Source of the DNA: Cenococcum geophilum | Lineage: Eukaryota | Reading direction: 5' to 3' | Assembly: GCA_050273025.1 (NCBI GenBank) | Contig: CP158635.1 | Coordinates: 1,984,001-2,048,000, forward strand | DNA: 64,000 bases | Shown here: in pieces, positions 2,867 to 61,958 of the stretch | How positions within the stretch are numbered: position 1 is the first letter of the stretch | How the letters are laid out: each line of letters opens with the position of its first letter | Translations under genes and position numbers: made by a program | The notes under the pieces: generated by a model | The model's input: the letters and a program-made list of their open reading frames with translations, nothing else | The model's database searches: none | Told to the model about the DNA's origin: nothing

Positions 2867-3307
2867 AGCAGGGCACGATTTAGCTTCAGCTTAGAGTCGC
2901 TAAGGCCTACCTCAGTCATTCTTCGCCGATCTATTATAGTTCTTTAGTATTTAATAGATTAAGCCTTACCAAGTACGCCTTGCTATAGAGGCGTTAACGG
3001 AAAAAGAACTCGTTCCTTAGCGGTATTATCCCACCGTCTTAAAATCCATGTCGATTAGCGTAAGGCGTAATAAGAAAGCGCAGGTATTACTACCTAGAAG
3101 GATTAAAAGGACCAGGTGGCTCAGGTGGCTTAGGTGGATTAGGTGGATTAGGTGGATTAGGTAAATTAGGTAGATTAGGTAGGTTAGTTTAACGCGCCAA
3201 AACGACTAGCTGCAAAGAATACGCTAAGCCGAAACGTGATTAACGTTAAGGCATTGCGAATGAAGACCCATAGAGATTTCCTATGCTTCTTATAAATCGT
3301 AGCAATA
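2867..3307 (+). repeat. Direct repeat, copy 1 (~440 bp; partner 5007-5522), containing a 9-bp AGGTGGATT tandem array
   Basis: Colinear with 5007-5522, differing almost only by C/T and G/A transitions. Confidence 0.95.
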
Positions 3308-5006
3308 AGTCTCTAACTAAATCTTGTATTCGCATTGGAGAGAAATTCCTAGCTATAACACTATAAGTGAATTATAGTCTCTGTTTCTTAGATTAATTAA
3401 TATACAAGTTCCAGACCTGGTATTTTTCGGTTAATAAAAGTGAAGAATAGTGTAGGGACTCCTATATATACCTACAGGGTTATACAAATCTAAAAATGGT
3501 ATAATGTATATTTAATGCCCACATTTTAAAACGCTTTGCAGACTAGCAAGATATTATTATTAAGACTTTTAAGCATTAGTTCCGTAGTTGAATTAGTCTT
3601 ATACTAAGACGACCGCCCTTAACCAAGATAATAAATTATATCTAGTTACGCGTATTAAATTTTCATAATATTAGTGAGTTTTTTATAACGAAGCGGAGTG
3701 AAACAATAATAGATTTCGTGTTATAATTAAGCTAGTTTAATACTTAAGATCCAGTCACGATTAAAAAATTAGATTTTATTACAGTACGCCAAATATAACA
3801 TAGGTGATATAATACCACGTCTACTCGCTTTTAATTCTTAAGGGGGTGCCACCCTATCCAAACTAGATAATCTTTTTCTGCTAATATAGACGAACAAGGC
3901 GCCTAGGAGCGTGAGTGCCACTATAGCGCCAACGACTATTCCTACCACTACTACACTAGAAAGGCCTTAGGAAGGTAAATATAGAACTAAAGTTGCAGAC
4001 AATAAGGCGCTATTAGTTATCGCGGTTAATGGGAAGGTTAACGTAGGCGCCTAAGTTAAGGTAACTACGCTTAAGGCTTTAGCTAGGAATAGTTCGCCAG
4101 GATTTAGCATAAAGGTTAAATTTTTAGCATACGCCCTCTGCACGGCGATGGTTTCGGTCTTATTCTGCACCTACTTTTAGTAGGCTAATCTAAGATAAAA
4201 TATATACGGCTTCCAAAAATAGCAATAGAAATAACAATAACAATAAAGTAAAAAAGGTAGAGGGGGGGAAATAGTAAATAATTTATCCCCTTACAGGATT
4301 TATAACTCCTACTATTCCTTATTAAATGTACGATCCGGGAGCTAAACAGTAGAAGAATATTAGCGCGGTATTATTAATAGTAAGGTTCTATAACGGCGGC
4401 TATTAAAATATAAATTACCGATTAAATAAAGTGGATATATTAAAAATGGAAAACAGACGTTTTTACCTCGTTGGATACTATGTCTATTAGGTAAAACCCA
4501 GAGAAGAAGCCAGTTTTTTACGGCCCTGTTATCTTATAAGGAACACACAGGTCTTTTTTGCGTCAGTTTAGTAACGAAGGTATAGAGAGAACTAATACGA
4601 TTTAGACTTACATTTATACTCGGCGCGAACTATAAAATAGTTAAGCGGGAAGAATTAGAAATAAATAACATCTCCTACATTTGCCGTTATGGTGTCTAGG
4701 ATAAATCGCTAAGTTAGCTTCCCAACCATAACGACGTGGAGTTTTATGTCGTTACCATCGGTAGTAGTTATGGGAGGGCTCGCCGAACTCAATGTCAAAA
4801 AAGGTAAAATTAAGATTAAAGAAGGTGGAATAAAAATTAAAGAATATATTTCTTTAGAGGAGGAGCTCACACCCAAAACCTATATAATAAATTTAACAAG
4901 GGTAAGAAAGGTCGTTAAAGCCTTAGGGGTTATTTAAAATATAATAAATAAAATAAAAATCAAAGTAAAAGAAAAGAAATATTAGATTAATTTAAAACTT
5001 AAGGAC

Positions 5007-5522
5007 AGTAAGGTACGATTTAGCTTTAGCTTAGAGTCGCGAAGTCTACCCAGTAATATTAGCGGTTAGGTTAAGTTAAACTAATAAGAAAATGCTAACC
5101 TAACCGCTAATATCACTAGGCTTACCTCGGTCATTCTTTACCAATCCATTATAATTCTTTAGTATTTAATGGATTAAGCCTCACCAAGTACGCCTTGCTA
5201 TAGAGGCATTAACGGAAAAAGGACTCGTTCCCTAGCGGTACTCTCCTACCGCCTTAAAATCCATGTCAATTAGCGTAAGATGTAATAGGAAAGCGCAGGT
5301 ATTACTACCTAGAAGGATCAAAAGGACCAGGTGGCTTAGATGGCTTAAGTGGATTAAGTGGATTAGGTAGATTAGGTAGATTAGGCGGATTAAGTAGGTT
5401 AGTTCAATGCGTTAAAATAACTAGCTATAAAGAATACGCTAAACTAAAACATAGTTTATGTTAAGGCACTATAAATAAAGACCTATAGAGATTTCCTATG
5501 CTTCTTACAAATCGTGGCAATA
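5007..5522 (+). repeat. Direct repeat, copy 2, carrying an extra 72-bp hairpin insertion
   Basis: Aligns to 2867-3307 except for the insertion at 5049-5120. Confidence 0.95.
5049..5120. mobile_element. 72-bp miniature inverted-repeat insertion
   Basis: 25-bp terminal inverted repeats: cccagtaatattagcggttaggtta and taacctaaccgctaatatcactagg (2 transition mismatches). Absent from the paralogous site near 2911-2925. Flanks tcta/ctta against empty-site ccta suggest a ~4-bp target duplication. Confidence 0.75.
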
Positions 5523-13114: not shown

Positions 13115-13116
13115 TA

Positions 13117-13599
13117 CAGTAATATGCACGACTAGCTTCCACCCCTCTAAAAAAAAAAATTATTTCGCTTCGGTACGCGGGCTCGCTAAATCGCCACCAA
13201 CTGTATATAGTAATTGTAGCGAACGCATGTGCCTGCACGTAAGGACCTTTTTAATTGCCCTAAAGAATCGCCTTAGTTGGCCAGAAGAACCAAACTAAGG
13301 ACGTACGCGCCCTCCCCTCCCCTTTAACTGCGCGCCCCCCCGCTATGCCGCCAAAACGCGAATACAAAGTTATTCCTACAATTGCCGATAAAATTTAGTA
13401 ATATTGTACTGGTGGAAACCTTATGATATTTAACAAAGATCACGATACTATAGAGGAAGGCCGATTGCGAAGTCTGCTAGAAGTAAAGTTCTTACAGCTA
13501 AGTATAGGCATTTGCTACGATTGCTAGCGAGCCCGCGTACCGAAGCGAAATAATATTTTTTTTTAGAGGGGGGGTGGAAGCTGATCGTGTATATTACTG
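13117..13599. mobile_element. Non-autonomous Tc1/mariner-type DNA transposon (MITE), 483 bp
   Basis: ~72-bp terminal inverted repeats (CAGTaatatgcacgactagcttccacccc...cggtacgcgggctcgcta and its reverse complement ending ...atattACTG), flanked by TA at 13115-16 and 13600-01. Confidence 0.9.
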
Positions 13600-13836
13600 T
13601 AATAGTTCGCTGTTACCTTATACTAGGGAGCAAAATACCCTAACTAAACTATCTTATTGCCTTTTTGCCAAGGCTTACTTCTTTATTGGCTAAGTCCTTA
13701 ACTTTTAGTACCGGTCTGCGCTAATCCTGTATTATATCTTATCTACTTATAGATACTTTACCCTATATTAGCTAGTAAACATTAAAGCAAGGCAGCGGCT
13801 TAACTACTTTAGATAATATTCTATAAATATAACATA

Positions 13837-31501: not shown

Positions 31502-32621
31502 TTTAATAAGATGAGGTGTAAGGGGATTTGTTGTAATAGTAAAAGGATATAAGTTACTATAAAATCCTCTTATAACGCGCCGTATCCCTACTATAATAAC
31601 CCTGTAGAAAAATGCCCCTAGCAAGAAACCATCTCCTACCTTTTAAAGAGTTTCTAAATAGCTGTGGTGGCAAGGGCAGAGTTACTTATCACTCCCTAAG
31701 GAACTACTAACGCGATCTTATACACCTTATTATCTAAAGAATGAATTAGGTGGATCAGATAGATTAGGTTAATTAGATAGGTTAGGTAGGCTTTTTTAAA
31801 CAGCTCTTTAACGACCCGGTAGCTCGATAAAGGTAATAGATAATTCTAAACTAGGCATGTACCCTTATATATACGTCTTCTTTAGGAGTAAAAGGTGAAC
31901 CTAGTTACATTTATACATTCCTTTAATCGCCTTAGTACTATAAGCTTTGTTTAATTCTTTTTCCTTATATATCTCACTTTTTTGCATTATAGCGTCGGCC
32001 TTTACCCTCGAATTGGATAGTATATTAGTTAGACGTAAATACACCCAGACATACTCCTGCAGAAAAGCACCTGCAAATGGCAAATTTCTAGGTTATATAC
32101 ACAAAACCAAAATAAAGACTGCTAGAAAGACATCCTCTCAAGGTAATATCCAATATTTATCTCGATTTTCGATTTTCTAATCATGGGTAGATGTCGCATT
32201 CAATATCGAGTTATCGGATTAATACATTAAAAAAACTCTCTCTACTAACTTAACTTTAGCGAGCGCTATATCTATTTAGTAGTAGTAGGTCATTAATCTA
32301 ACTAACGATACTAAGCATTGCGCTATTTATACAAATATTCTTAGCAAAGGGGAGAACAATAGCGCGCGTATATTTGTTTTAGAACGCTGCTGCTATATAA
32401 GCAACTCCTTAGAGCTAATGACCATTTCAACAGACTAACTAATTTATCATAGATTATCTATGGCGAATGTATTCTTAATAGTGGCCTAGAAGCTAAGGAT
32501 AAGTCAGGGATAATAGTTAAATAGTTTAACTGCCCTCGCTGGGATCATTCCTACTAAGGAGTGCAGAATACACCTAAGATTTTTGGAATTGACTGTTTGA
32601 TCTGCTGGAGAAGAGCTAATA

Positions 32622-32846
32622 ATGCTATTTATCGAATTCTTACCCCTTGCGGTAAGTTCCTATATATATTTAGATAATTTTAAGAAAAGTCTAACTATTA
32701 CAGGCCATTCATTCTGCTATAACTGTATTATAAAGTGGAACAGCTCTAAACATAGTGGTCATTGCCTATGTTATAGAAAACGCTTTAGTAAAGGCCTTAG
32801 CACGTTTCGAAAATTCAAAACAGTTCAGCGTGGTATCCTTCGTTAA
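32622..32846 (+). pseudogene. RING-finger (C3HC4)-like remnant
   Basis: ORF contains YIYLDNFKKSLTITGHSFCYNCIIKW...HCLCYRKRF, matching GHSFCxxCIxxW...CPxCR after de-RIP. The first Cys ligands are not cleanly recoverable. Confidence 0.5.
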
Positions 32847-33827
32847 ATATGTTTATAAGTTATTATATCCAGACTCGCAGTATGCACTTTCCTAAAACGC
32901 TCCCTTTGGGGAAGTTAACTTAGGTTCTAGGAGGGTGTAGTAAGATATTAATAAACCTTTAAAGGTAAGATAGGGAGATTCGATAGTATATAGAACTTAT
33001 TACACCTAATGCAAGGTTAAGAATATAAGTTCGTCCCAACCTACTCGTTAATTTGGTCATTTAGCCCTACCTTATTATCTCCACCGCTTTTTGCCCCGGT
33101 TGCCTTATTACACTAGTCTCCTATAATATACACTCTTTCTATTCCATTAGCGCTTATAATCCCCTCATTTTTGTGCTTATAAGCTTATTACGGATTAATT
33201 AAATTTTCCTACGGACTTAGGCATAGTTTATATAATACGCCGTTAATTCAAAATGTCTCTAATAGTCAAAAGGCGGTTTCCTTTTTTACACCTCAATACA
33301 AAGCAGATTTTTAGCTGTGTATACTGTGCATATCTCTAATTGAAATGCGGGTTACTACCCAGCCACTAAAGCGTAGGTGCACCCTTTAGTGATAGGTGTC
33401 CACAATATGCCGTATATATAGCGGGGTGCAGTGAGACCGGATTAGATAATGCGAGTTTATATATATCTAATTAGGGCTAAAAGCAAGTACAAATATCCGA
33501 TAAGTTTCCTTCCTTTTACCTACTATCCCATTAATCCTCTTTCCAACTCCTCCCACCTCTAGCTTAAAGCGTTCGCGTCTGCCACTATATACCCACCATA
33601 TCTTTCAGCACCCCCAATTAAATCTCTGTGGAGAATCTTAACCAAAATTAGGACTTTAGTTAAAATTCCTCTATTTAAATTCTCTTTAAAGCTATAACGG
33701 TAAACGGAACTCGCTAATCTAATCTAAGGTATATATTGGTCACATAGGGTAACTCACCAATAACGACTACTCGAGTAGGGTTATAGTGATATTAGGTAAT
33801 AAATCTTATTCAATTAAAATAAGGAAG

Positions 33828-33889
33828 GGCGAGGAGCTTAAGACTCCTCGCCACGCTAGTGCCGCGGCATCACGTAATGACCGCTTGCC
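33828..33889 (+). repeat. Hairpin + acgCTAGtgccgcggc motif, copy 2
   Basis: ggcgaggag-cttaaga-ctcctcgcc is a 9-bp stem, followed by acgctagtgccgcggc; homologous to 25677-25738. Confidence 0.8.
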
Positions 33890-34399
33890 TCATTCCCAAC
33901 AGTATAGCTAATATTTTATGTTTAGGTTCCTTTAAGGCAATGCCCAACTTGTCTTATAAATAGTGAGAAAAGTTAGGTAATTCCCGGAAAAGACTATCCT
34001 TAGTACGGTACTCCAGTAAACTATTTAGACTATTTAGTAAGTACCCTTTCCCGGCAATTTCTATACAAGTTGGCTAATAGATAAAGTACCTTAAATATAG
34101 GAGATTAGGCAATTTGTATACATTAAAGGCTTTAAACCTATAGGAGGAATATATTACTGCTAATTACATATAAGAAATGTACAGGACTTAGTTGTTCACT
34201 ATTTATTAACCCTTAACATTATTGCTAACCCGCAATTTTGTTCCCGAAACTCTTACCTAGTTACTCCACCATAGTTAAAACTGTGAAACCGTCTCCCCCC
34301 ATTTCAGCTCTACCACCCTCCTATACGGCTTCATTTCCAGTAAACAGTAAGAAATCTTTATTTAGCAAGCTCGCTATCTCCCCACCCTCCTACACATCT

Positions 34400-35150
34400 G
34401 CATCCTCAGTGGATGGATACTAATCTTCCTTTAGAAAATCTACTTTCTTCAAACCTTAAAACCACTCGGCTTTAGAAATAGAATAGTTAATAAAATAAAG
34501 ATCGTCTCTTTCCTTATCTAGGAAGAGATTGAGAATATAAGTCTCTAGAAGGCCAGAGAAAGCTTTAAGCACGCTAAAGAAAGGCTCCCCATCTTTGCCA
34601 ACCGTAACCCTACTATCTATATTTACCATTAACTGAAGTTCTTAAATAATATTCGGGCCAAAGCAATATACATTAGTATCATTTCTACCCTTTAGAGAAT
34701 CTTTGGCAATTTTTTTAACCTCCTTTATAAGAGCCTCCACGCCCTATGCCTCTAAATATATTTCAAGCTTCTTAAGAGTAAAGTCCCTTTCCTTTCTAGT
34801 TTTTTTAGGTCCCTTTAAAAGAGTCTCTACCTTAAGCCTGGGACTATTTATAAATAGGTACTTAGTTATACGCTCAGCAACCTCCCAAAGTAGTATAACC
34901 TCGCTTTTTTTATAGATGCCGATCTCCTGCAACAGTTTTTGCTATACAAATATAGCCGGTTTCCATGGTTCCTGGGTTTTATCCTTAAATTCTAAACTAT
35001 CGCTATCCTGAAGAGGATAAGGAGGAGGAGGAGGAGGAGGAGGAGAAAAAGGTGGAGGAAGTAGAGGCGGAGGCGGCGGTAGTAGTAGTAATGGCTGCAA
35101 TAGAAGAGTTATAATAGCTGCTTTAGGAAGAGGGTTAAAGGAGATGCTAA
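34400..35150 (-). pseudogene. Hypothetical protein with poly-proline tract; includes ORF 34744-34932
   Basis: The (GGA)n run at 35019-35045 reads as poly-Pro on the minus strand, in frame with ORF 34744-34932. Confidence 0.45.
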
Positions 35151-35739
35151 TAATCTAGGAAAAGAATTAAAGGTAATTCTAATAAGAAGATAGACTAATC
35201 TAGGATATTTAGGCTAATTTATAGATAGGTTATCTAATATCTCTACGAAAAAGAGGGGCGTGTAATGTAGTGAGATTATTATAACGCTGTTTATAGCGTC
35301 CTGTAAAAGACTTATCTTAAAAGCTAAGTTATAGATATAGCTTATAAACTATGACAACTTCCTAAAAATATAAGGATACTTTACTACCCAATTTTTAATA
35401 GGGAGTTCAGCCGGTTATAGGCATGCATATATATACACTAGTGGAAAATATATAAAAGGTTATATACTTAAAAGTCTATAGAACTTAAAGCGTATATAAT
35501 ACGGATAAGGTCCCTATAGGGGTATATATCACTTCGCTCTCTAACTATACTCTAGGCGTTAAGAAATATAGGGACGCTGTTAGTATTACGGGTAGTGAAG
35601 ATAGGCGAAGGTTAAAGTTTTATTACTATAGGCGTTAAATAATAAACTTTGTTTACGGATATCATATTCTAAGGAAAAATAAGATTTATTTCTTAATAAG
35701 TATAGAGATAGGGTGGGGAAATAGCTTACTAATCCAAGC

Positions 35740-36560
35740 ACTTAGTTCTTAAGATTTAAGGCTAGCCACTATTTAGAGCTTTAGGTCTCCTAAGTATATA
35801 AAAGGGTAAATATAAAAAATCTAAGTCCTAAGCACCGCCGCAGCTTTAGGCCTAATAAAGTACCTAATTATCAAGATTCCAAAACCTACCTATATACTAG
35901 TCCAAATAAAAGGGTATAAACAAGTACTTAAAGCCCCAATCGCCGCCGCAGCTATAGGCCCACCAAAGTGCCCGGCTATTAAGGTTTTAAAACCCATATA
36001 TATACCAGTCCAAACCGCACCACGAACCACTTTTATAAAATCTTAGTCAAGCTTCATTATACGCTTCCCTAAACCATCCAGAGCTAATCCTCTATCCTAT
36101 ATATATAGAATACAATTAGACTAGCTCTTACACCAGACCTAGCGTCCATTATGCTTAAATTATGCCAGGATCTTAGTACTATGGTTACTCGTCTAGCGGA
36201 GATAGTCTAAATATTAAGTTATATAACTTCTGAGCTTAGAGTATGGGCTAAAATAAGTACCAATTATCTTAACAACCTATAACTTCGTTAATTTCGCTTA
36301 GTAATCATATAGATAATAGCCTTACTTTAACTTTTCCTAGCTCCAGCTCTAAAAACTCTTTAAATTCGTGTAAAGAAGCCCTATCTACCTTAGAAATGTT
36401 CTCTCCGTCTTTAGGGACCCAACTGCCCAGAAACACCATATTGGTTATTTGCTCCATAATATACTCTAGCAGAGATAGAATGTACACGTTTAAGAGAAGT
36501 CCTTTAGTTATATTTATGTGCACCTCCAGCCACTAGGGCACAATTCTCTATATCCTCCCC
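35740..36560 (-). pseudogene. Hypothetical protein with a C-terminal duplicated 36-aa hydrophobic Gly/Ala-rich unit
   Basis: ORF 36305-36523 continues through RIP stops to VWTGIYMGFKTLIAGHFGGPIAAAAIGALSTCLYPF / IWTSI*VGFGILIIRYFIRPKAAAVLRT*IFYIYPF, a 108-bp duplication. Confidence 0.55.
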
Positions 36561-36569
36561 TTATAACGC

Positions 36570-37068
36570 AGCGAGGCAGAAAGTTAACCCGGTTAAGAGC
36601 AAAGGCGCTACTAAGAGCGCTAATATAGCTATAGCTACATTAGCGCTCTTAGTAGCGCCCTTTATATAACCGAGTATCCCTACAGAGACTCCGCGTTGGG
36701 CGTAGTAGCCTACTAACTTTTAAACCGTTCCTATACTTCTATTAACCCTTCCCTAGTAGGACGCCACCGTAATGCAATCCCCTATAAGAGCGATTACGAC
36801 ATCCTTAGAGTTATGCAAGCCACGCTTAGGATACTTCGTATCGATCTTTTAACCCATAAGATACCTATTTAAGAGGAAGTATAAAGACATTTTACGCCTT
36901 AATAAAAATTAATAGGTCGCTTTAATAACCACTAAGTCTAATATAGTTTCACCTCTACGGCACTTAGCTCTAAAAAAAGGAAATAAGTGCTTACCATCTC
37001 TTCTTTAGGGAAACTAATATTAGCTTCTAGGAGGGAAATTCTTAATTAGATGTGTCTAAATCTTAATA
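36570..37068 (+). repeat. Segment R copy 1 (499 bp) with loop-less palindrome at 36601-36663; bounded by GC dinucleotides
   Basis: Aligns with 40943-41359 (transitions plus internal indels). Confidence 0.9.
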
Positions 37069-40000
37069 GCAAACCTGTCCCTCTTTCCGCTCCAAAATTC
37101 CCTCAGCCTTTACCCTCTCTTTAATATCTCAGCTTTCTATACAAGGCAGCGTATTAAATGGCTTCAAAAAAGGGTATTAATAATAACTAGAACTAGAGGT
37201 TTAAAAGTAAACGTAAAGAGATTTTCCGTATAACATTCGCTGAACCTAAGTCTATTAAGGTTAGGAGCTATTCTATACATATATCCTACACTCTAACTAT
37301 TTTACAGATAGAGAAAATATTAGCCTTTTGCCCTAATCCCTCGAAGCTATGCAATTCTTTAGTATTTATACAGTTTACCTAAAATGGGCTGTAGTTAGAT
37401 GGTTACTAGAAGTTATAAAACTTAGAGTTAACGAATAATTAGACGGAATCACTAAGAATAGACGAGATAGACGATTTCATTAGTTAGACGGAATTACTTA
37501 AGTAAAACGGATACTAAAAAGATCAATACGGAGCATAGAAGAAGATACTATCTTTAATAGCGGAAGCTGGGCCGTCCTAGTTAACTGCAATAGAGGACTT
37601 AAGTAGCTAATAAGGGACTTCGACAGGCATAGAGGCTTAAGACGTTAGCTTTGCTTTAATGTAAAAATGCTATTAAACTAGAACCTAATATCGCTATACC
37701 CTAGCCATTAGGAGCGCAGGACGCAAGCCATTAAATACAATATGGCGTTATTATATTGCCGTAGTGTTCTGAAGTTACTGCTAGTAGTATAGTAATGCCT
37801 AGATATTAACCTGCTTAACGGTAATTAGATCTTACCCTCTTTTTAGGAGCTCCTCTTTTTCGGTAAGGCTGTTATATAGTAGCTTCATTTAATTCTACAA
37901 TCTAATAAGTCATTATACGCCAGCAGGGATCGCGATCGGCCCTTTAGTACGCTACTTTAATAACACAATAGGGTGCATAAACTTCGTCTAATTAGTTTAG
38001 GTACATTCTTTGTCAAAGGAGCGCTGGCTATAGTAGACATCTTTACGGCTATATTAAGTTTCTCTTTACTGCTTACTTTTACTTTGCAGAAAACATCTCC
38101 AAAGCTCTAAACTGCTGCTAAGGTTCTGTATAGTACGCTCGATCTTTACCCTATTTATATTTCCTCACCCGTTTAAGTAGTATGGTTGAAGCTTATACAA
38201 GACAGCGCTATGCGTTAAAGGAGCTTTTTTACGGCGACAATTTAAGAATAGGTAAGCGGTTCGTCCCTTAAGGTATACAACTCCCTAAAGTAAGTTTGCC
38301 TTCTAGGGCGAAAAGCGATCTTCTTATATAGCGGAGATGGTGGGTACGCTTATAGTAGGCTTAAATGTAATTATATATAATAATAGTAGGGCTAACTAGA
38401 TAATGGATGTTAGCATTAAATAGACTAACCTTTACCAAAAAGGCGGCGATAGAACAACATACAGGCCATAAGGCAGCGGGGAGGTAATCTAATTAGAGAC
38501 CTGCTCTACGCCGCTACTAGGCTAGTTAACGTTAAACAAAGAATATTAAGCAACTAAATTACAGCGGGTGAAATATAGGCTGTCAGCAAAAGGTTTAGTT
38601 TAAGTATCTATATAATATCTATCTATTAATAGTTCCCCACTATATAGCTCTAGAAGGCGAGGTATCCACTAACTATTAACACTATAAGGAAACCCACCGA
38701 ATACTAAACTGCCACTTCCCTATATAGTCTCCCTTTAGAATATATATTCTTAAGTTGCCTCTTATAAACCCTCTATAGGGTTTGGCCGCATGCCGTAAAA
38801 CCGGCGAGATAAGCTTTTCGTAACGTAGGTTCTGTGGAAACATTAAAAGTAAAACCCTCTACTATATTAACTAAGAGCTCCGCACCTTGGCTTATATATA
38901 TTTTATCAATAGTAAGGGTCGCTTAATACTTGGTTTCTTAAAGGGTCACCTCTACATCCACAAAATAGGTGGTAAAATTTATATTAGACACCTCTGTAAT
39001 CTACAACATTAGGATTTTATCCTCTATATTAGATAAATAGGGGCCCTACTTTTAGGGATAGAATCTCTTCGTCCTTAAATGTTCTATAATTTTCAGACGC
39101 AATAAACTTCTTATAGCTCGCAACGCCTAATACCCACTCGTTTACGGTAGAATCTATTGTATTAGGAAGGGCAATAGTAATTTCGGTAGAATGATAAGAT
39201 AATTTTCAAGGCGACAGAGATAAAGGTCTTGTATAATTAAAGCTAGATACTAAGGAGGGTTTAAAGAGCCTATTTATGCGTGTGCGGGTCAGGCTAGATT
39301 GACTAAATACGGCCCCTATCTCCAACCTGGTATTACGGATACGTATACTATCTTATAGTTTCCCGACAAAAGCATGCGGTATAATGTAGTTGCTGCGGAT
39401 GACAAAGACCGGTAAATGCCTATATGCGAGGCGTTAAGCCGAGACTGTAAACAGGAGGGTACTACGATGCATATTCGGAGGCTGTAAATGGACGAATACT
39501 GCTTACTTCTAGTCATGCTCTAGATAGTGACGGAGTGCGAGATGATTAATAAGCAATAAAGGTTAGGGATGGCTTAAAGCCGCTATAAGATGAACGTAAC
39601 TGCATAAAGCGGGGCAAATGCGTATAGCTAGCATGCTTATTATTAGGAGGTCACTAAAGGAGGTCTCGCGGCCAATTCATTAGACAATAATAGTACTTAA
39701 GTAAGCTAGATGCACTTTAAAGTATACTCTAAGCACTAGAAGAGAGTAGATATATAATAATATACGGATGAAATACTTATAGATAAGAACTATCCGAATA
39801 TGGGCTTAGGTAAAAGTGTTTATCAGCCCTCCGGTCGTTTGGTATTACTCCCACTATATAATAAAATTGCCTTTTTATGGACTCTAGGCAAGTCTACCTT
39901 AGTTTCCGATAGCTAATAGTATAGGCTTCCCACTAGTACCAATCTATGCTTTTCACTTCTTCTGTTTAAAGGCCCACTTTAGAAAATAACAGCAAATTGC

Positions 40001-40942
40001 ATTTTCCTTCCCGCTGCTGGAATTTTACTACTATCCAAATACGTATAGCAAATAGTGCTGCGGTATATTTAAATTGTATTCTACGGCGCTCTTAATTGCC
40101 GCGCTTAGGACATCGGAGAAGTTTTTAGGGATTATTACAATAGCAGATAATAAGCTGTATAATTAAAATGTCGTAGCTTACTATAAAGTATAAATACAAA
40201 GCGTTTAGGGTTAGGGAAGAAGACCTTACCTAGTACGACTTGATTATTACTACTAACACCTCCTAGTCGCTCTTAAAGTCATAGACCGGAGGAAAAGTTT
40301 AGAAATTAGGCTTTCTAGCCAATGTAATAAAGCGGTAGTTCTAGTAGGTAGAAAGGCTATTTCTAGTAATAAGAAGCCACGATATTGCTACAGCGGCTAA
40401 TAGTTGGTAGAGAGTATTATAGATAACTCCTTTAACGGGCTACGCGAAAAGCCTATTTATATTACGCGAGAGTACTCTATATAGCGTTCAGATACATTAA
40501 GGGGCAGTTTAGCCAAGTTACCCTTTTCGGAATATCACGGTAGGTTTTAGGGCATTTTTCATTATTAATCCCACTCCTCTATACTAAATGCCCGTAGAAG
40601 ACTAATTAGGTATAGATAAGCTACAACTAGTAAGCAGGAAGGCTACGGATTAAATAGGCGGTAGAGGTATATATAGTTAAACGTAAGGTACGGGATGCCT
40701 ATAGGGTTAGCAGGTATAGAAAGGTGCGAGCTATATAGCTGCTTACTTTTAATTGCTTTTAGGGTTTAGTATTAACTCTAGAGGTCTTCTAGTGGTTTAT
40801 TTATATACTAGTCGGTAAATTACAGCAGTGGTTATAGTAGTGGATTCTCCTTTTAGTAATCGCCGTCGTTTAGGGGGATTAGGGGCATAAACATATTTAA
40901 TGAACTTCGTATCTCTCTAAGTAAGAAGAGGAATAGGTTTAC

Positions 40943-41359
40943 AGCGAGGCATAAAGTTAACCTAGTTTAAAAGCGAAGGGCGCTACTAAAAGCGCTAATA
41001 TAGCTATAGCTATATTAGCGTTCTTAGTAGCGTCCTTCGCACGACCTTGAGTACCCCTGCGGATACTCTCTTTTACACCTATTCCCATACAGTAGGACGC
41101 CACCGCAATGCCCATAAGCCTTCGGCGATCGCAATCCCCTATAAAAGGGGATACCTATTTAAGAGAAAGTATAGAGACCTTTAACGCCTTAACAAAGATT
41201 AATAGGTTGCTTTAATAACTACCAAGTTTAGCATGGCTTTACCTCTACGGCACTAAGCTCTAAGAAAAGGAAAGAAGTGCTTACTATCTCTTTGCTAGGG
41301 AAGCTGGCGTTGGCTTCCGGAGAGGGAAGTTCCTAATTGGATATATCTAAATTTTAATA
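40943..41359 (+). repeat. Segment R copy 2 (417 bp) with 68-bp palindrome at 40973-41040
   Basis: Aligns with 36570-37068. Palindrome arms are 34 bp with three transition mismatches. Confidence 0.9.
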
Positions 41360-42257
41360 GCATCGTAAGGGGAGGATAAAAACTTGGGGGTATATAGAGA
41401 ATTGTACCCCGGCGGCTGGAGGTATATATTAACTATAAGTTGCCCCGTTGCCCTAACGCCTCGCTAATTTTTCCTACCTTATATTCTCCCACACTTATAA
41501 TATTTACCCTATTTCTATAATATTAGGCCTAATACTATATAGATCCTACTTTTATCCTTGCTGGTATTACAGTTCTAATTTCCGTGCCCGTAGTAATATT
41601 TAGCTATTCTACTACTACTCAAAATATCTATTTTATAGAGTCTCCGAAGTTCGTTTATTTGTAGTAGCCGTAGGTTTTTCTTATCGCTGGTTATATAGGT
41701 TGTTTCTTTACTGTCATTATAGCAGGTATATTTATATTATTAAATTGGGTAAGGCCTAAGGAGTAGGCCTATTATGGCTTTACAAAGGCTAGCTTAATAC
41801 TGTTGTTATATAGCATACCAGTTCTTAGTCTACTTTTTCCATCGTTGTTAATTTGCGAGCTGAGCCTATAAAACTACTAGGATCTAAGATACCAGCCCTT
41901 CTCGTATATAAAGCGTCTAGGTAGGGTAATATGTCTCCGTAAACCTAGATTGCCAAACATAGCGTATTAACCGTAATAAGTATATAAGCCCACCTCTATA
42001 TCCTTGCATTCCCTATAAGGAGCTATAATATTTACCAATTATAGCTTTTCTAGAATGCGTAGATCGGACGGGGGTGTTAAATATCTTAGTAGAATAGTAG
42101 CTTGCTTTTAATATATACGAAAAGGGGAAGAATTAGCCGGCTTAGCCTATAATTATACTTGCCGTTAGATAGGGTTAAATTTAGATATAATAGAGAGTTC
42201 CTTAACCTTAGATTTATTCTGTTAGGTTAAGCAACACTCTATTAGCTCTAACAGAAA

Positions 42258-45050
42258 ATGAAAACTACTCTTCCTTTTTAATAGCCTCTTAGCCTTTATA
42301 CCTCTAATAGGATGCCTTTAGAATCCTCTCTAACGTACGTTACTTCTACGGGGGCTCCTAAGGACTTAGGCACGCTATAAGCCCCACCAGGCCCTACTAA
42401 TGCGGAATAGTCGTTAATGTTTTCTCTTATTAACTAGTATAGCAATTATTTCCTTTATCCGATTATCTTGTGCCTTATATATAAGGTATAACTAGCTAGA
42501 CATTTCTAGTGCTTACGTTTACCATATTTAGACGCTGCGAAATACCATATTAAAAGGGTTTAAAAATCCACAAACTTGTAATACTATTCTGAATTACAAA
42601 TTCTATTTAGAGGATAGAAAGGGAAGGATCATTCCGCTAGACGCTTAGGGACCATTTACAATAAGATATATAGAGAAAAGGAAGTCGGGCAAGGTTATAA
42701 GAATTATAGTATCGCCCCTATTTTTCACCCTTGTGGTTAATAATACTCTATTACGGGTTGTGTTACCTATAAACTTATACTGCCCTATTAAGGTATGTTA
42801 ACTCAAACTTGGTATAAGAGCCATATCTTACCACTATTCTAGGGCATGCGTAGGGCCATTCTCTACGCCTTATACTAGCTCTATAGGGATATGGATATAA
42901 ATATAATTAAGGCCGTAGAACAAGATCGGTACCAGCTTAAGGATTAATAAAGTACACTCGTTCTCCCAGTATGCTTTAACTACCTAAGTGGCATAATAGT
43001 TAAGTTGATTATATCTAATTCGTGTAATTCTGCGTCTCCTACTCCACCTCCTACTTTACCTCCTACGCCAGCTCTATCTTAAGCTTCCTCTCCTACTCCA
43101 TACTATCTGCCTTTAATCGTCACTTAGACAGAGATACTAGTTATTGTTGTTAATTAAGAATTATTACCTAGGATTGGTGGTTATGGCAGTAGATATATGT
43201 TAATTGTAATAGTTGCTAAAGCTGCATCCGAATACTTGGGCGGGGGTCATTATATATAGAAAGAAGAGGCAAAGACTCTCCTCAATTAAGTAAAGAATGC
43301 TACCAAGTATTGTATTAACAAAATGGATAACACTAATTAAGGTAGCTATAAACCAGGAACTATACGACAGCTTTAGTTAGTAATTAACCTCTTAAAATAG
43401 GTTAAGTGCCAGGGATTACGCGGTAAACTATTAACCTTTACTTTACCTAGAAATGGCTCAGACTATTATATAATTAGTATCCTTTTAGAGGAACTAATAG
43501 ATAACCTTTTTATTATAGATTGTTAGATTCCTTAAGGGGAGTAACATTAGGGGTTAGATCTATTAAAGTTCCTTATAGGAGAAGATGGGAAGATGGCCTT
43601 AGAGGAAGACGGGGAGTTAGTCTTAGAGAAAGACGGGGAGTTAGTCTTAGAGGAAGACGGGGAGTTAATCTTAGAGAATAATCTTAGATAATCTTAGATT
43701 TTCAATGCGTATTATTTTACTCCTATTAGAGGTAGAGGAAGACGTGCCCTAGAATAGGTAGTGCGGAGGACGTTTAAGGAGGCTATAAAGTTTGGGTATA
43801 CTAATGTACCTAAGGCTAGGCAGCTCCTCATTATACCTATAAAGACTAATCGCTAAATCTAATCCACTTTATTAAAATTCCTAGCTATGACCGTAGATGC
43901 GATTGCGGGACTGTTATAGCAGTTATAGAGTGCGGTAATTGCTAGGAAGATTGGGGTATATTAGTTAGGACAAGTAAGAATAAAAGGAGACGTAAAGGAG
44001 ACGTATATAACCTGACGCATCCTATACTAAAGCATTAGCTACTTCGCTAGCAAACTATTCTATACTTATAATAACTTATAATTAATAAGGTTATACTAAT
44101 AACCATCCTCAAGTTTATAGTCTGTTACCTTACCCCTTTAAAGTCCAACTATTTTATAACCTAAAAGGAAGAATGGTACGTCTAGCAGTTAAAGTAGTAG
44201 TTTAAGTATGGACTAACATTCCATTATAAAGGCGTAGGCTATGGCATCTAAAGACGGTCTCTTAAATACTAATTATAAACAGTTCTCTTACTAGCTCTTT
44301 AAGTGTCGACTAGGGGAAATATACGACCTTTTAATGGGGATACTAAATAAAAAGAACCCCTAAGAGGCGTAGGGCCTTATAACAAGTCTTTTAAAGCTTA
44401 TTCGGTGTACTTATAGTAAGATCGGTAATAAGACTCCTCTACTTAGGATACAGGTCATAGCGGAAAGCTTTAAAGCATATACAGATATTTGCAAAGAAGG
44501 CTACGACGCAGAGAATACTAGGGGGTTCTTAAGGATTATAGAATGCGCTCTTAAGGTCGCTATGGACAGAACGCTCTACTCTAGCAGTGTTCGCCTAGCT
44601 ATGTTAGATAATCTACAAGATCTACCACTTGTCTATATAGGAGGGCTCTCCAATTCCCTAGTATTTCAATTATAGCGGCTAAGCTACAACAAATGCCCCG
44701 GGGGCCCCCTGAGATACTTTAAGCTTTAAATTCTTAACGCATTCTTAAACTGTAATCCAATTTTTGTTTTAGAGGATTTTTATAATCTAAGTAAATAAGA
44801 AGAGTTTCTAAAAACCCTTCCCTAGAGATGCCTCCGCGCAAGAAAGGACGGTAGGGTTATTGTTAGTATCGTAATAGTAAGCGGCTTAAAAGAAGAGTCC
44901 TTATTTAATAGCGATAAAGGTACACGCAAACCTCACTTAATATTAAATAATTCGCTAATAAAGTTAACAGCTTATCTTAAATACCTTAAAGAAGACGTTT
45001 AAAGCCTAAGTAAAGACAGAGATATGGGGGCGCTTAAGTTATACCGTATG
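42258..45050 (+). pseudogene. Large hypothetical gene with possible fungal ubiquitin-like domains near the N-terminus
   Basis: Long reading frames with RIP-type stops and an intron near 42793-42842. ...K/GMRRAILYAL...IKAVEQDRYQLKD**STLVLP... and ...FYLEDRKGRIIPLDA*G... resemble the fungal ULD_2 pattern (GMxxLI...VxxGxYxL....ILP..W). Confidence 0.4.
43575..43677 (+). repeat. 24-bp tandem repeat (~4 units) encoding LEEDGELV-like units
   Basis: ttagaggaagacggggagttagtc-type units at 43599, 43623 and 43647, plus a degenerate unit at 43575. Confidence 0.9.
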
Positions 45051-59800: not shown

Positions 59801-61034
59801 AAGGCGTGCATGTTAACAAATACGAGAAGCGTCAATATTCTATAAATCGATATCTTTCTAAAATAGATATCGATAAAATAAACAAGTCCTTATCATAACA
59901 AACACATTAAGAGCATTTAGCTAATTAGCGATAAGAACATATATACCAATTAGTAAATTTAGAAAATTCATTCTTCTTAGCATGTCTTAGGAAAAGCTGG
60001 TATTCGTTTATACTTATAACCTCTATCTAGGTGCTAAGAAGGCTTAAGCTTTCCTACTCTCTTAGAAACTCTACTAGCGACTAATTAAAGTAGGCCTCTA
60101 TCCAGCCTACCTAATTTAGTTTTAGCCTGCTAAGTAAAGACCAAATAGACCCCCTTTTATGCCTCGCTTAGTCACCACACCTCTTTATCTCCTGACCCTC
60201 CCGCGTAAGTTCTACGGCCGTCCCATTCTCGCCTATTTTAGCACTCCTAAGAACTGCGACAAATTTGTAGTAGCTTACTATATAAGTTTAAATTAACACC
60301 TTTGTTACTAAGTAATCAATTACTCCACTAGAATAATATAGGAATTTACATTACAATAGGATGTTAGTGTCAAAGAGACTAATTTAAGAAATGATAACAA
60401 CCACATCAATTATAAGGAGGTTCGCTAGTAATATATAGAAAGGCAGCCATTACGTAGGGCGAGGCTGGCTACGCCTAAAGGGGCTAAGGATGCACGCCGT
60501 CACTTACATTTTCCCTAGCTTATTAACTTAAAGCCTTTACCGTACAGACTAACCATTGCGCAGGGAAATACGTTTAGATTATAAGAACTTTTAATATAGG
60601 CCAAAACGGGGTATGGGGAGACATTAGCAGGTATATAGAAATAATACAGATAAGGCAGTTAACGTGGATTAGGTAGGTTAGGTGGATTAGGTGGATTAGA
60701 TAAATAATAAATTAAATAGGTCAATACTAGGTCCACGTATATAGGGCTATAGCAGCATTTAAATCCGTATAGCTCTTTTAAATATATAAAAGAGATCTAT
60801 AGGGCTTATAGGCCCCTCATTCTAAGGCTTACTCTTTTAAGGCAGATTTAGGACTCTAAGCCCTCTATTACAAGGTAGGAGTATATGTTCTTATAAAGGA
60901 GAAGACTATAAAACGACAACAGCACCTACCTAAAAAATATAAAATTACCTACTGTCTTCTTTATGCAGGACTAATAGGTAAGGCTTTTATTCTGTATCTA
61001 AGTCAATCTATCCCTACGCTTCTAGTTTATCGCT

Positions 61035-61322
61035 ATAAATCCAACTAACATCTCGGCTAAATCTACAGCTACAGCCCCAGTTGTCTCAACTCCTACTAAA
61101 CTTTTTACCAACTGTACGCCTACCATCCTAACCATTATAAGTCCTACTAGGATTATTACTAAGTCTTCGGCTATAACCCCAACCAACATCTTAGCTAAAT
61201 CTATAGCTATAGCTCTAGTTATCTTAACTCCTACCAAACTTTCCGCCGACTCTACGCCTACTATCCCAACCATTATAAGTCCTACTAAGATTACTATTAA
61301 GTCTCCGGCCACAACCCCGACC
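61035..61322 (+). repeat. 138-bp (46-codon) tandem repeat, 2 full copies plus a partial
   Basis: Units start at 61035, 61173 and 61311 and differ mostly by transitions. Confidence 0.9.
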
Positions 61323-61958
61323 ACTATAAAGCCTACTACGTAGGATATACACCTAGGCTTTTCTATCTGCCAACCACCAAATATAGCTCCTCTTACTAGC
61401 GGATCTGTCTTTCTTACTAGTAGTATAGAAATGGGGAAAGCGCCTAAATGGCAAAATGATGTAACGAAGCGCCTTAGCTTGCTCCCGATTACGGTTCTAA
61501 ATCCACGCTAGGATTACTGCAATGCCAATCTTAAGTAAGATATTAGTAACCCGGAATTCTGTAGGCAAGTTTAATAGGGGCTTAAATGCTAGGAGAAGGC
61601 CATAGTAATCGCTATATATCTTTATCCGGGAACCAATTCCTCAATAAGTTTGATAGAGCTAGGATTGTTTATAAAAACTAGGAAAATGGTAATTTGCTAC
61701 CCGGATGGTTTTTATAGGAGAGGCAATGTGTAGGTTATGTGCGGTGAATATAGCGGAAAGCTAGTAGAGACGTTAGATAAACTGGTTAAGGAGGTAAAGG
61801 ATAGAATAAAGTGCTATAAGGGAAGCAGTAATAAGAATACTGTTAAAAGACATATTAGCTGGTTTAATCGTCTCTACTAAAGCTGGCGACGACTAACCTA
61901 CTTGGTTTGCTGGAGGAGTAGACAATGCGAAAAAAGGCGAAAAGCTATAATTGTCTAA
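61035..61958 (+). pseudogene. Nucleoside 2-deoxyribosyltransferase-like protein (Nuc_deoxyri_tr2/PF15891-type) with Thr/Pro/Ser-rich N-terminal tandem repeat
   Basis: SVFLTSSIEMGKAPKWQ (FLAGSIEMG), ITVLNPR*D, DISNPEFCRQV**GL, PGTNSSISLIELGLF and VICYPDGFYRRGNV*VMC. Confidence 0.85.

Follow-up and report, generated by a model that had tools for sequence, protein, structure and literature searches.

Among described systems, the nearest to the locus reported here is the Conserved Hairpin Site (CHS) found in fungal GalEa Copia elements. In the parts of the GalEa study drawn on here, the CHS consists of a 9-bp palindromic sequence, CHSeq1, lying directly after the 5′ LTR, together with a complementary sequence, CHSeq2, located 12–41 bp downstream, and it occupies the position expected for the primer binding site (PMC5445492). 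Unspaced inverted repeats are, in the sections of two further papers on which we rely, described as prone to breakage (PMC3300023, PMC1851657). A narrow search of the literature on long perfect palindromes in RIP-affected fungal repeats returned no description of such an element.

The locus studied here lies in AT-rich fungal repeat DNA with a RIP signature (TpA/ApT 1.52 and (CpA+TpG)/(ApC+GpT) 0.65 across the window, by which is meant the whole 64-kb stretch of DNA that was analysed). Two copies of a long palindrome are present, each inside a non-coding unit termed R (Table 1). The original prediction of a spacerless palindrome with 34-bp arms and three transition mismatches at 40973–41040 was confirmed by inverted-repeat analysis, with all of the arm mismatches in this copy being transitions without exception. 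The second copy, which had been placed at 36601–36663, was also recovered, and its arms are clean over the shorter of the two spans given in Table 1. When this copy is read with 34-nt arms there are four mismatches, two of them not transitions but the result of 1 nt lost from the outer part of the left arm. A position about 30 bp within the left end of R had been claimed for both copies and this holds, the offset from the left boundary of R to the palindrome being 32 nt for copy 2 and 30 nt for copy 1.

Table 1. Positions in the window of the palindrome copies, the R units that carry them and the sequences flanking R.
Feature	Position	Strand	Description
Palindrome copy 2	40973–41006 / 41007–41040	no strand	34+34 nt, spacerless, 91% complementary
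Palindrome copy 1, clean arms	36601–36631 / 36632–36662	no strand	31-nt arms, 94% complementary, 2 mismatches
Palindrome copy 1, 34-nt reading	36598–36665		outer 3 nt of each arm disturbed by a 1-nt deletion
R1 (type 1)	36568–37070	+	503-nt non-coding unit, GC at start and end; bounds set by flank symmetry
R2 (type 2)	40941–41361	+	421 nt, direct copy of R1
IR remnant left of R1	36503–36567	+	most of IR deleted between 8-nt direct repeats
IR′, right of R2	41362–41532	-	complete IR in inverted orientation; 171 nt, of which 16 nt are an insertion
B	37071–37100	+	polypyrimidine tract of ~30 nt, adjoins R1 on the right
B′	40917–40940	-	inverted B (polypurine on the + strand), adjoins R2 on the left

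As far as the GalEa study describes them, the CHS and extended CHS resemble the present palindrome in being non-coding, hairpin-forming and better conserved than their surroundings (PMC5445492). In contrast to the CHS, the palindrome is a spacerless 68-bp sequence situated 30–32 nt inside R, and no Copia or other coding remnant was found. Identity of the palindrome with the GalEa CHS was rejected, as place, size and architecture all differ.

A scan of the 64 kb for palindromes with arms of at least 14 nt and a spacer of at most 6 nt returned these two copies and no others, while the same scan of five Markov-shuffled windows gave 0, 0, 1, 0 and 0 palindromes with a longest arm of 14. Likewise, a 30-nt core pattern matched the window at the two palindrome copies only and found nothing in 100 shuffles. 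When an arm was used as a query across the window, four matches were obtained and these were the four palindrome arms, with neither a solo arm nor a further context being seen. The centre of the palindrome is AT-rich and a strong hairpin or cruciform is predicted. The predicted single-stranded DNA folding energies of the two copies were −29.3 and −28.7 kcal/mol (z −8.6 and −8.0, respectively), which none of 200 shuffles equalled. A 332-nt Logan contig of sequencing run X1 corresponds to window positions 36497–36828 with 0 differences, and this exact match, together with the presence of the core in seven metagenome contigs, establishes that the palindrome is real and not an assembly artefact.

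Copies outside the window were taken from a single metagenome pattern scan and from the Logan contigs of runs X1, X5, X7 and X9. The metagenome scan, performed with a 26-nt degenerate core pattern, yielded seven loci (L001–L007), all RIP-like and 82–91% identical to the window, and thus nine copies are known, including the two in the window, with the core present in all nine. Many palindrome copies were also found in four short-read assemblies. The core pattern was absent from a viral collection of 2.9 million contigs and from a prokaryotic genome collection. Four sequencing runs shared 72–77% of the sampled words of the window, while others bearing the same species label shared 7–10%. Alignment of Logan contigs to window positions 36300–41700 at 80% likeness placed 497 contigs from X1, 264 from X5, 469 from X7 and 427 from X9; the depths of these contigs are not copy numbers, and parts left uncovered prove nothing. 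The differences seen in the X1 contigs were A>G 263, C>T 282, G>A 272 and T>C 178, with each transversion class counting 3–10. These differences are overwhelmingly transitions, indicating that the whole 5.4 kb, including the interior, is a multi-copy, RIP-mutated repeat.

The repeat unit spans at least window positions 33446–43023 and is therefore at least 9.6 kb long. Locus L004 is colinear with 33446–40500 and L006 with 37956–43023, while L001 and L005 are internally deleted versions. The R units fall into two types with type-specific indels, type 1 comprising six copies (W1, the left copy of the window, and L001, L002, L003, L004 and L005) and type 2 comprising two (W2, the right copy, and L006). 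Since these indels are common within each type, both R lineages and the palindrome are old and predate the amplification of the family. The family itself is, from its sequence, evidently a dead, RIP-killed repeat of a fungus with a unit of at least 9.6 kb.

R1 and R2 are approximately 82–83% identical in two alignable blocks, with large indels in the middle of the unit. Together with their flanks they form the layout IR-R-B ... B′-R-IR′, in which the R copies are direct and the flanks are inverted, so that R is flipped relative to its flanks. The IR sequence is 170–190 nt long where intact; it is full length in L001, L002, L003 and L005 and deleted in the left copy of the window and in L004. 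Approximately 250 nt of the IR region is missing at ~36503 in the window and in L004 (compare L002:2641–2900). Some 21 nt of B′ can be aligned with B, where all six differences are transitions, and no symmetric extension of B and B′ toward the interior was detected past ~30 nt. The breakpoints of R carry GC at both ends and show no target-site duplication. In the copies observed, R is flanked by one pair of sequences only, namely IR and B.

The divergence of R1 from R2 (identity 0.776, transversions 0.044) equals that of IR from IR′ (identity 0.79, transversions 0.040), which indicates that R is as old as the inverted duplication and speaks for a single ancient inversion in place and against two insertions. 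The simplest history suggested by these comparisons would be an old IR-R-B inverted duplication followed by an in-place inversion of R at a 2-nt GC microhomology, both before amplification. The ends of R are conserved and its middle varies, as is expected for a non-autonomous element. A transition-tolerant alignment revealed no further R-like pieces in the window, with best scores of 39.5–51 against 36–45.5 for the null. Two contig junctions were also observed near R. At 36492 five X1 contigs switch from the window to unrelated sequence, so the part to the left of the IR region may be a separate repeat ending there. At 41287 contigs from three runs (three from X1, two from X5 and four from X9) leave R2 for a common other sequence, and this shared exit indicates that the right part of R, as far as that position, also occurs in another repeat.

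The symmetry of the palindrome was followed through all nine copies. Over the inner 27 nt of the arms, the numbers of arm-to-arm mismatches were 1, 2, 1, 3, 0, 0, 3, 4 and 4, and every one of these mismatches was a transition in the RIP direction. It follows that the arms were still perfect in every lineage at the time RIP acted, and the proposal that the palindrome was perfect before RIP is thereby supported. In addition, wherever arms differ, a G or C is still present at the same mirrored position in some arm of some copy, indicating an ancestor free of mismatches over 34 nt per arm. The symmetry extends further in L002, to ~42 nt with a 2-nt bulge.

Changes on both sides of a mirrored position were found at seven pairs and in 11 cells, compared with a shuffle mean of 5.8 cells, a level reached in four of 500 shuffles. 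These changes are exclusively GC to AT at mirrored RIP-prone sites. At pair 20/49 both positions were changed in four copies, one in three and none in two, where independent hits would be expected to give 3.4, 4.3 and 1.4; at pair 28/41 the corresponding counts were six, two and one, with 5.4, 3.1 and 0.4 expected. As all of the changes are GC to AT and the copies are related, the excess is not evidence of selection on pairing, and no non-RIP covariation between the arms was observed in the nine copies, in which the sequence itself is conserved. Compensatory substitution between the arms, which the original prediction had put forward for testing, was thus not borne out, the both-sided changes fitting independent RIP hits. 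Loss of the palindrome from R homologues or uncompensated decay of its arms had been named as counting against the idea: the palindrome was found in all eight R homologues retrieved and in one diverged relative, whereas the arms do decay uncompensated, with 0–4 mismatches per copy. Moderate evidence from these alignments suggests that the palindrome was maintained in the past.

The palindrome is better conserved than its flanks. In a comparison of six R copies, from which L001 and L005 were omitted because of large private deletions, only 12 of 471 sliding segments of 54 columns were free of transversions and indels, and each of these overlapped the palindrome core. The 54-nt core is the sole part of R without a transversion or indel among the copies compared. 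In the best-aligned stretch of R outside the core, 7.1% of the columns contain a transversion or indel, from which 3.8 would be expected per 54 columns, and the difference between the core and this best-kept other part corresponds to roughly P = 0.02 by a Poisson estimate that involves few independent events and related copies. Pairwise transversions numbered 0 in 1804 compared sites of the 68-nt palindrome, against 2.1% over R. Transition-variable columns made up 22% of the core and 32% of the columns outside it; CpA and TpG sites are few in the palindrome, which lowers its RIP load. The 40 nt directly to the right of the palindrome show 12.7% transversions between the types and are among the most diverged of R, and this high divergence makes local homogenization by gene conversion unlikely. 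Taken at the level of the sequence, the data argue moderately that the palindrome was kept better than the R around it. A cis-acting site, as the original prediction suggested, is plausible, and no stretch of R is better kept than the core.

The locus L007 shares with the family the palindrome plus ~20 nt, with 1–2 transversions and no gaps in 67–72 nt, while two other segments common to L007 and the family have 10.4% and 5.5% transversions and nine and three gap openings. Segments L007:3102–3215 and 3882–4103 match window positions 38319–38431 and 35404–35617, with their order changed and identity far below that of the palindrome. The left flank of L007 could not be aligned with R (23–130 of 200 shuffles scored equally well), and the right flank gave a weak alignment of ~110 nt (3–10 of 200 shuffles were as good). 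Flanks of the L007 type were seen as the loose ends of three contigs in run X7. The piece shared with L007 is asymmetric about the axis, extending 27 nt to the left and ~46 to the right. On sequence similarity the right flank is probably homologous to R, and this weak homology, taken with the two further shared segments, suggests that L007 is an old rearranged relative of R and not an unrelated host.

Rearrangements cluster at the palindrome. A 38-nt centre deletion between 5-nt direct repeats (joint 36615 to 36654) was present in one X1 contig and two X9 contigs. L001 and L005 carry a 38-nt deletion, with 3-nt microhomology, that begins where R begins and reaches the inner left arm; the homology of L007 to R stops within the left arm; and the left inversion breakpoint of R lies 30–32 nt from the palindrome. 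Both centre deletions and breakpoints at or in the palindrome, the marks of a palindromic fragile site, were therefore found, which is how a small fragile site behaves, with extrusion predicted from single-strand folding energies. In its AT-rich centre, predicted hairpin, centre deletion and arm breakpoints the palindrome is like the human PATRRs and artificial unspaced inverted repeats, so far as the portions of the two reports used here describe them (PMC1851657, PMC3300023). Unlike PATRR-type fragile sites, given in those portions as 190–600 bp, it measures 68 bp and lies inside a dispersed repeat.

The coding content of the region was also considered. In the window there are only three stop-to-stop frames of at least 150 codons and no tRNA genes. 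Rfam searches of the window gave no family at the gathering score and, at E up to 1, just microRNA-hairpin look-alikes with 22–33 bits against thresholds of 59–97. Pfam searches of the six stop-as-X frames of 34000–44000 returned no families in any of the six frames, a negative result that is weakened by heavy RIP, and among 55 window ORFs of at least 65 amino acids only sub-threshold RING-finger and DUF6095 matches were obtained, both away from the palindrome. The six frames of L007 gave a single sub-threshold BLM10_N match. Only six ORFs of at least 75 amino acids were present across the metagenome loci, and a de-RIP consensus opened no long frame, its longest ORF being not above 119 amino acids. 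Neither around the palindrome nor in L007 was a Rep or helicase remnant found.

Several further features of the window were recorded. An open frame of 81 codons at 32601–32843 (+) gives weak matches to RING fingers, the best of them at E 2e-4 and 21.7 bits where the curated cut-off is 30. Direct repeats of 405 nt at 2903–3307 and 5118–5522 share 86.7% identity at a distance of 2.2 kb and may form a small pair of LTR type, and 84-nt inverted repeats at 13115–13193 and 13518–13601, 89% identical and ~320 nt apart, have the shape of a miniature inverted-repeat element. Tandem duplications are located at 35798–36013 (unit 108 nt), at 43567–43662 (unit 24 nt, as three overlapping 48-nt copies at 24-nt spacing) and at 61032–61323 (unit ~138 nt).

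R was compared with known classes of mobile element. An LTR identity was rejected: the indels that distinguish R1 from R2 are shared across six and two copies, so that the units were already different at amplification and show no re-homogenization, while the ends are GC...GC and not TG...CA and the flanks are inverted copies and not direct duplications of 4–6 bp. A polypurine tract does adjoin R2; however, its complement adjoins R1 at the expected primer binding site, and beside R1 no tRNA-complementary primer binding site was seen. Helitrons have 5′-TC and 3′-CTRR termini, insert between A and T and carry a short hairpin ~10–15 nt from the 3′ end, and subterminal hairpins are a feature of HUH-type elements (Helitron, IS200/IS605). 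The palindrome is like the Helitron 3′ hairpin and the IS200/IS605 ends in lying tens of bases inside a unit that has neither a target-site duplication nor terminal inverted repeats. A Helitron end was nevertheless rejected for R, with its GC ends, its flanks of ...GAC and AAACC... and its palindrome of 34-nt arms 30–32 nt inside; in contrast to Helitron and HUH hairpins, R ends GC...GC, the flanks are not A|T and the palindrome is several times longer and farther inside.

Tyrosine-recombinase elements (Crypton, DIRS, Ngaro) carry a tyrosine recombinase gene; among them, DIRS elements have inverted terminal repeats with an internal complementary region and Ngaro/PAT elements have split direct repeats. 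The layout IR-R-B ... B′-R-IR′ fits neither the DIRS nor the Ngaro/PAT repeat scheme, and a link to tyrosine-recombinase elements, raised in the original prediction, found no backing in the Pfam search around the palindrome, in which RIP weakens the negative.

The reading that we favour, tentatively and with rather more doubt than confidence, is that the palindrome once served an active element as a sequence-specific cis signal in hairpin or cruciform form and is now a decaying, fragile relic. The palindrome stayed unchanged and symmetric while the rest of R gained transversions and indels, and it is for this reason read as a cis signal. The palindrome, an ancestral part of R (~420–500 bp), was perfect in the past and on this reading actively kept, and would have provided the element with either a docking site for proteins assembled symmetrically or a nucleic-acid hairpin for its propagation; RIP then killed the family, and the copies are now decaying via uncompensated C-to-T and G-to-A changes. 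That the conservation had a functional cause, and of which kind, is something we infer. The usual dimer binding site is far shorter than a spacerless 68 bp, which counts against this reading. Possible, though rather unlikely, is that the palindrome is a neutral by-product, in which one fold-back or template-switch error, arising in replication or repair, made a perfect inverted duplication in the ancestor of R that was functionless, fragile and inherited by all. Such an origin would agree with the decay of the arms without compensation and with the four rearrangements clustered in or beside the palindrome. The creation of perfect inverted repeats or hairpins by template switching, in the one mutational step that could also have produced the palindrome, is reported in the parts of two studies drawn on here (PMC5453318, PMC8794818). 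A relative of R lacking the palindrome was not encountered among the copies retrieved. For the template-switch hairpin class, arms of at least 34 nt are long. A neutral origin leaves unexplained why the core is the sole stretch of R free of transversions and indels and why, of the segments shared with L007, the palindrome is by far the best kept, and a contribution from gene conversion is unlikely given the diverged 40 nt adjoining the palindrome. It is improbable that the palindrome is a portable hairpin module of the kind proposed for the extended CHS in GalEa Copia elements of fungi, a cassette of ~55–75 nt that recombination or template switching carries from one repeat family to another. 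Such a module would be suited by the left flank of L007 that cannot be aligned with R, the three X7 contigs that end in flanks of this type and, so far as the GalEa study was drawn on, the extended hairpin regions that distant families have in common (PMC5445492); yet the right flank of L007 is probably R-homologous, two more segments are shared with the family, the asymmetry of the shared piece (27 against ~46 nt) fits a fragment better, and the window holds no solo arm or different context.

Returning to the cis-signal reading, explanations that rest on an enzyme acting at R or at the palindrome were set against it. That the palindrome serves a site-specific recombinase that flips R, with R as an integrative cassette that inverts or can sit in either orientation through a GC crossover, is very improbable. 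R does occur in both orientations between the same flanks, with exact bounds, GC ends and no target duplication, and positions 21–34 from each R end form, by eye, a weak inverted repeat (~10/14 identical, the rest transitions). However, a single historical inversion accounts for all eight copies, R is as old as the inverted duplication, the palindrome lies away from the breakpoint, no recombinase domain was found, and beyond GC the R ends share no recombinase-type inverted sites. Type 1 always occupies one arm and type 2 always the other, which gives no sign of repeated switching. The palindrome is equally hard to see as two abutted transposon ends, or as a miniature fold-back MITE of two TIRs only, and we consider this scarcely probable: the arm length of 34–42 nt is TIR-like and TTAA flanks the extended palindrome on both sides in L002-type copies, but the right TTAA is derived, as W2 and L007 share another hexamer from which the variants follow by RIP and one transversion, no target-site duplication is consistent over the nine copies, and the arm query matched palindrome arms alone. 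Least credible of all is a telomere-resolvase target, a scar of a hairpin-replicon concatemer, or a rolling-circle or nicking origin. Only the shape (long, spacerless and once perfect) speaks for such a role; the palindrome, however, is not at a replicon end or junction but lies within a repeat of at least 9.6 kb, where conserved sequence flanks it left and right in eight copies, the Pfam searches revealed no domain of a replication, resolvase or HUH protein, the core pattern is absent from the viral contigs and prokaryotic genomes searched, and the Rfam look-alikes are far below threshold. The earlier suggestion of a resolvase target, nicking origin or hairpin-end scar thus found no support. 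A more speculative extension, which we regard as doubtful, would make R an undescribed small mobile fungal cassette with GC ends, no target duplication and insertion in either orientation, in which the palindrome would be the recognition hairpin for a recombinase or HUH enzyme acting in trans and the flip would be an enzyme footprint and not a random inversion.

If the conservation of the palindrome reflects function, it would add to the few known hairpin signals in non-coding parts of fungal mobile elements, among them the GalEa CHS, and would be an unusually long, spacerless example. If it is neutral, it would be a natural case of a 68-bp perfect palindrome surviving and decaying under RIP and seeding small rearrangements. 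In neither case does the palindrome provide evidence of a replicon with hairpin ends, of a telomere resolvase or of a recombinase switch.
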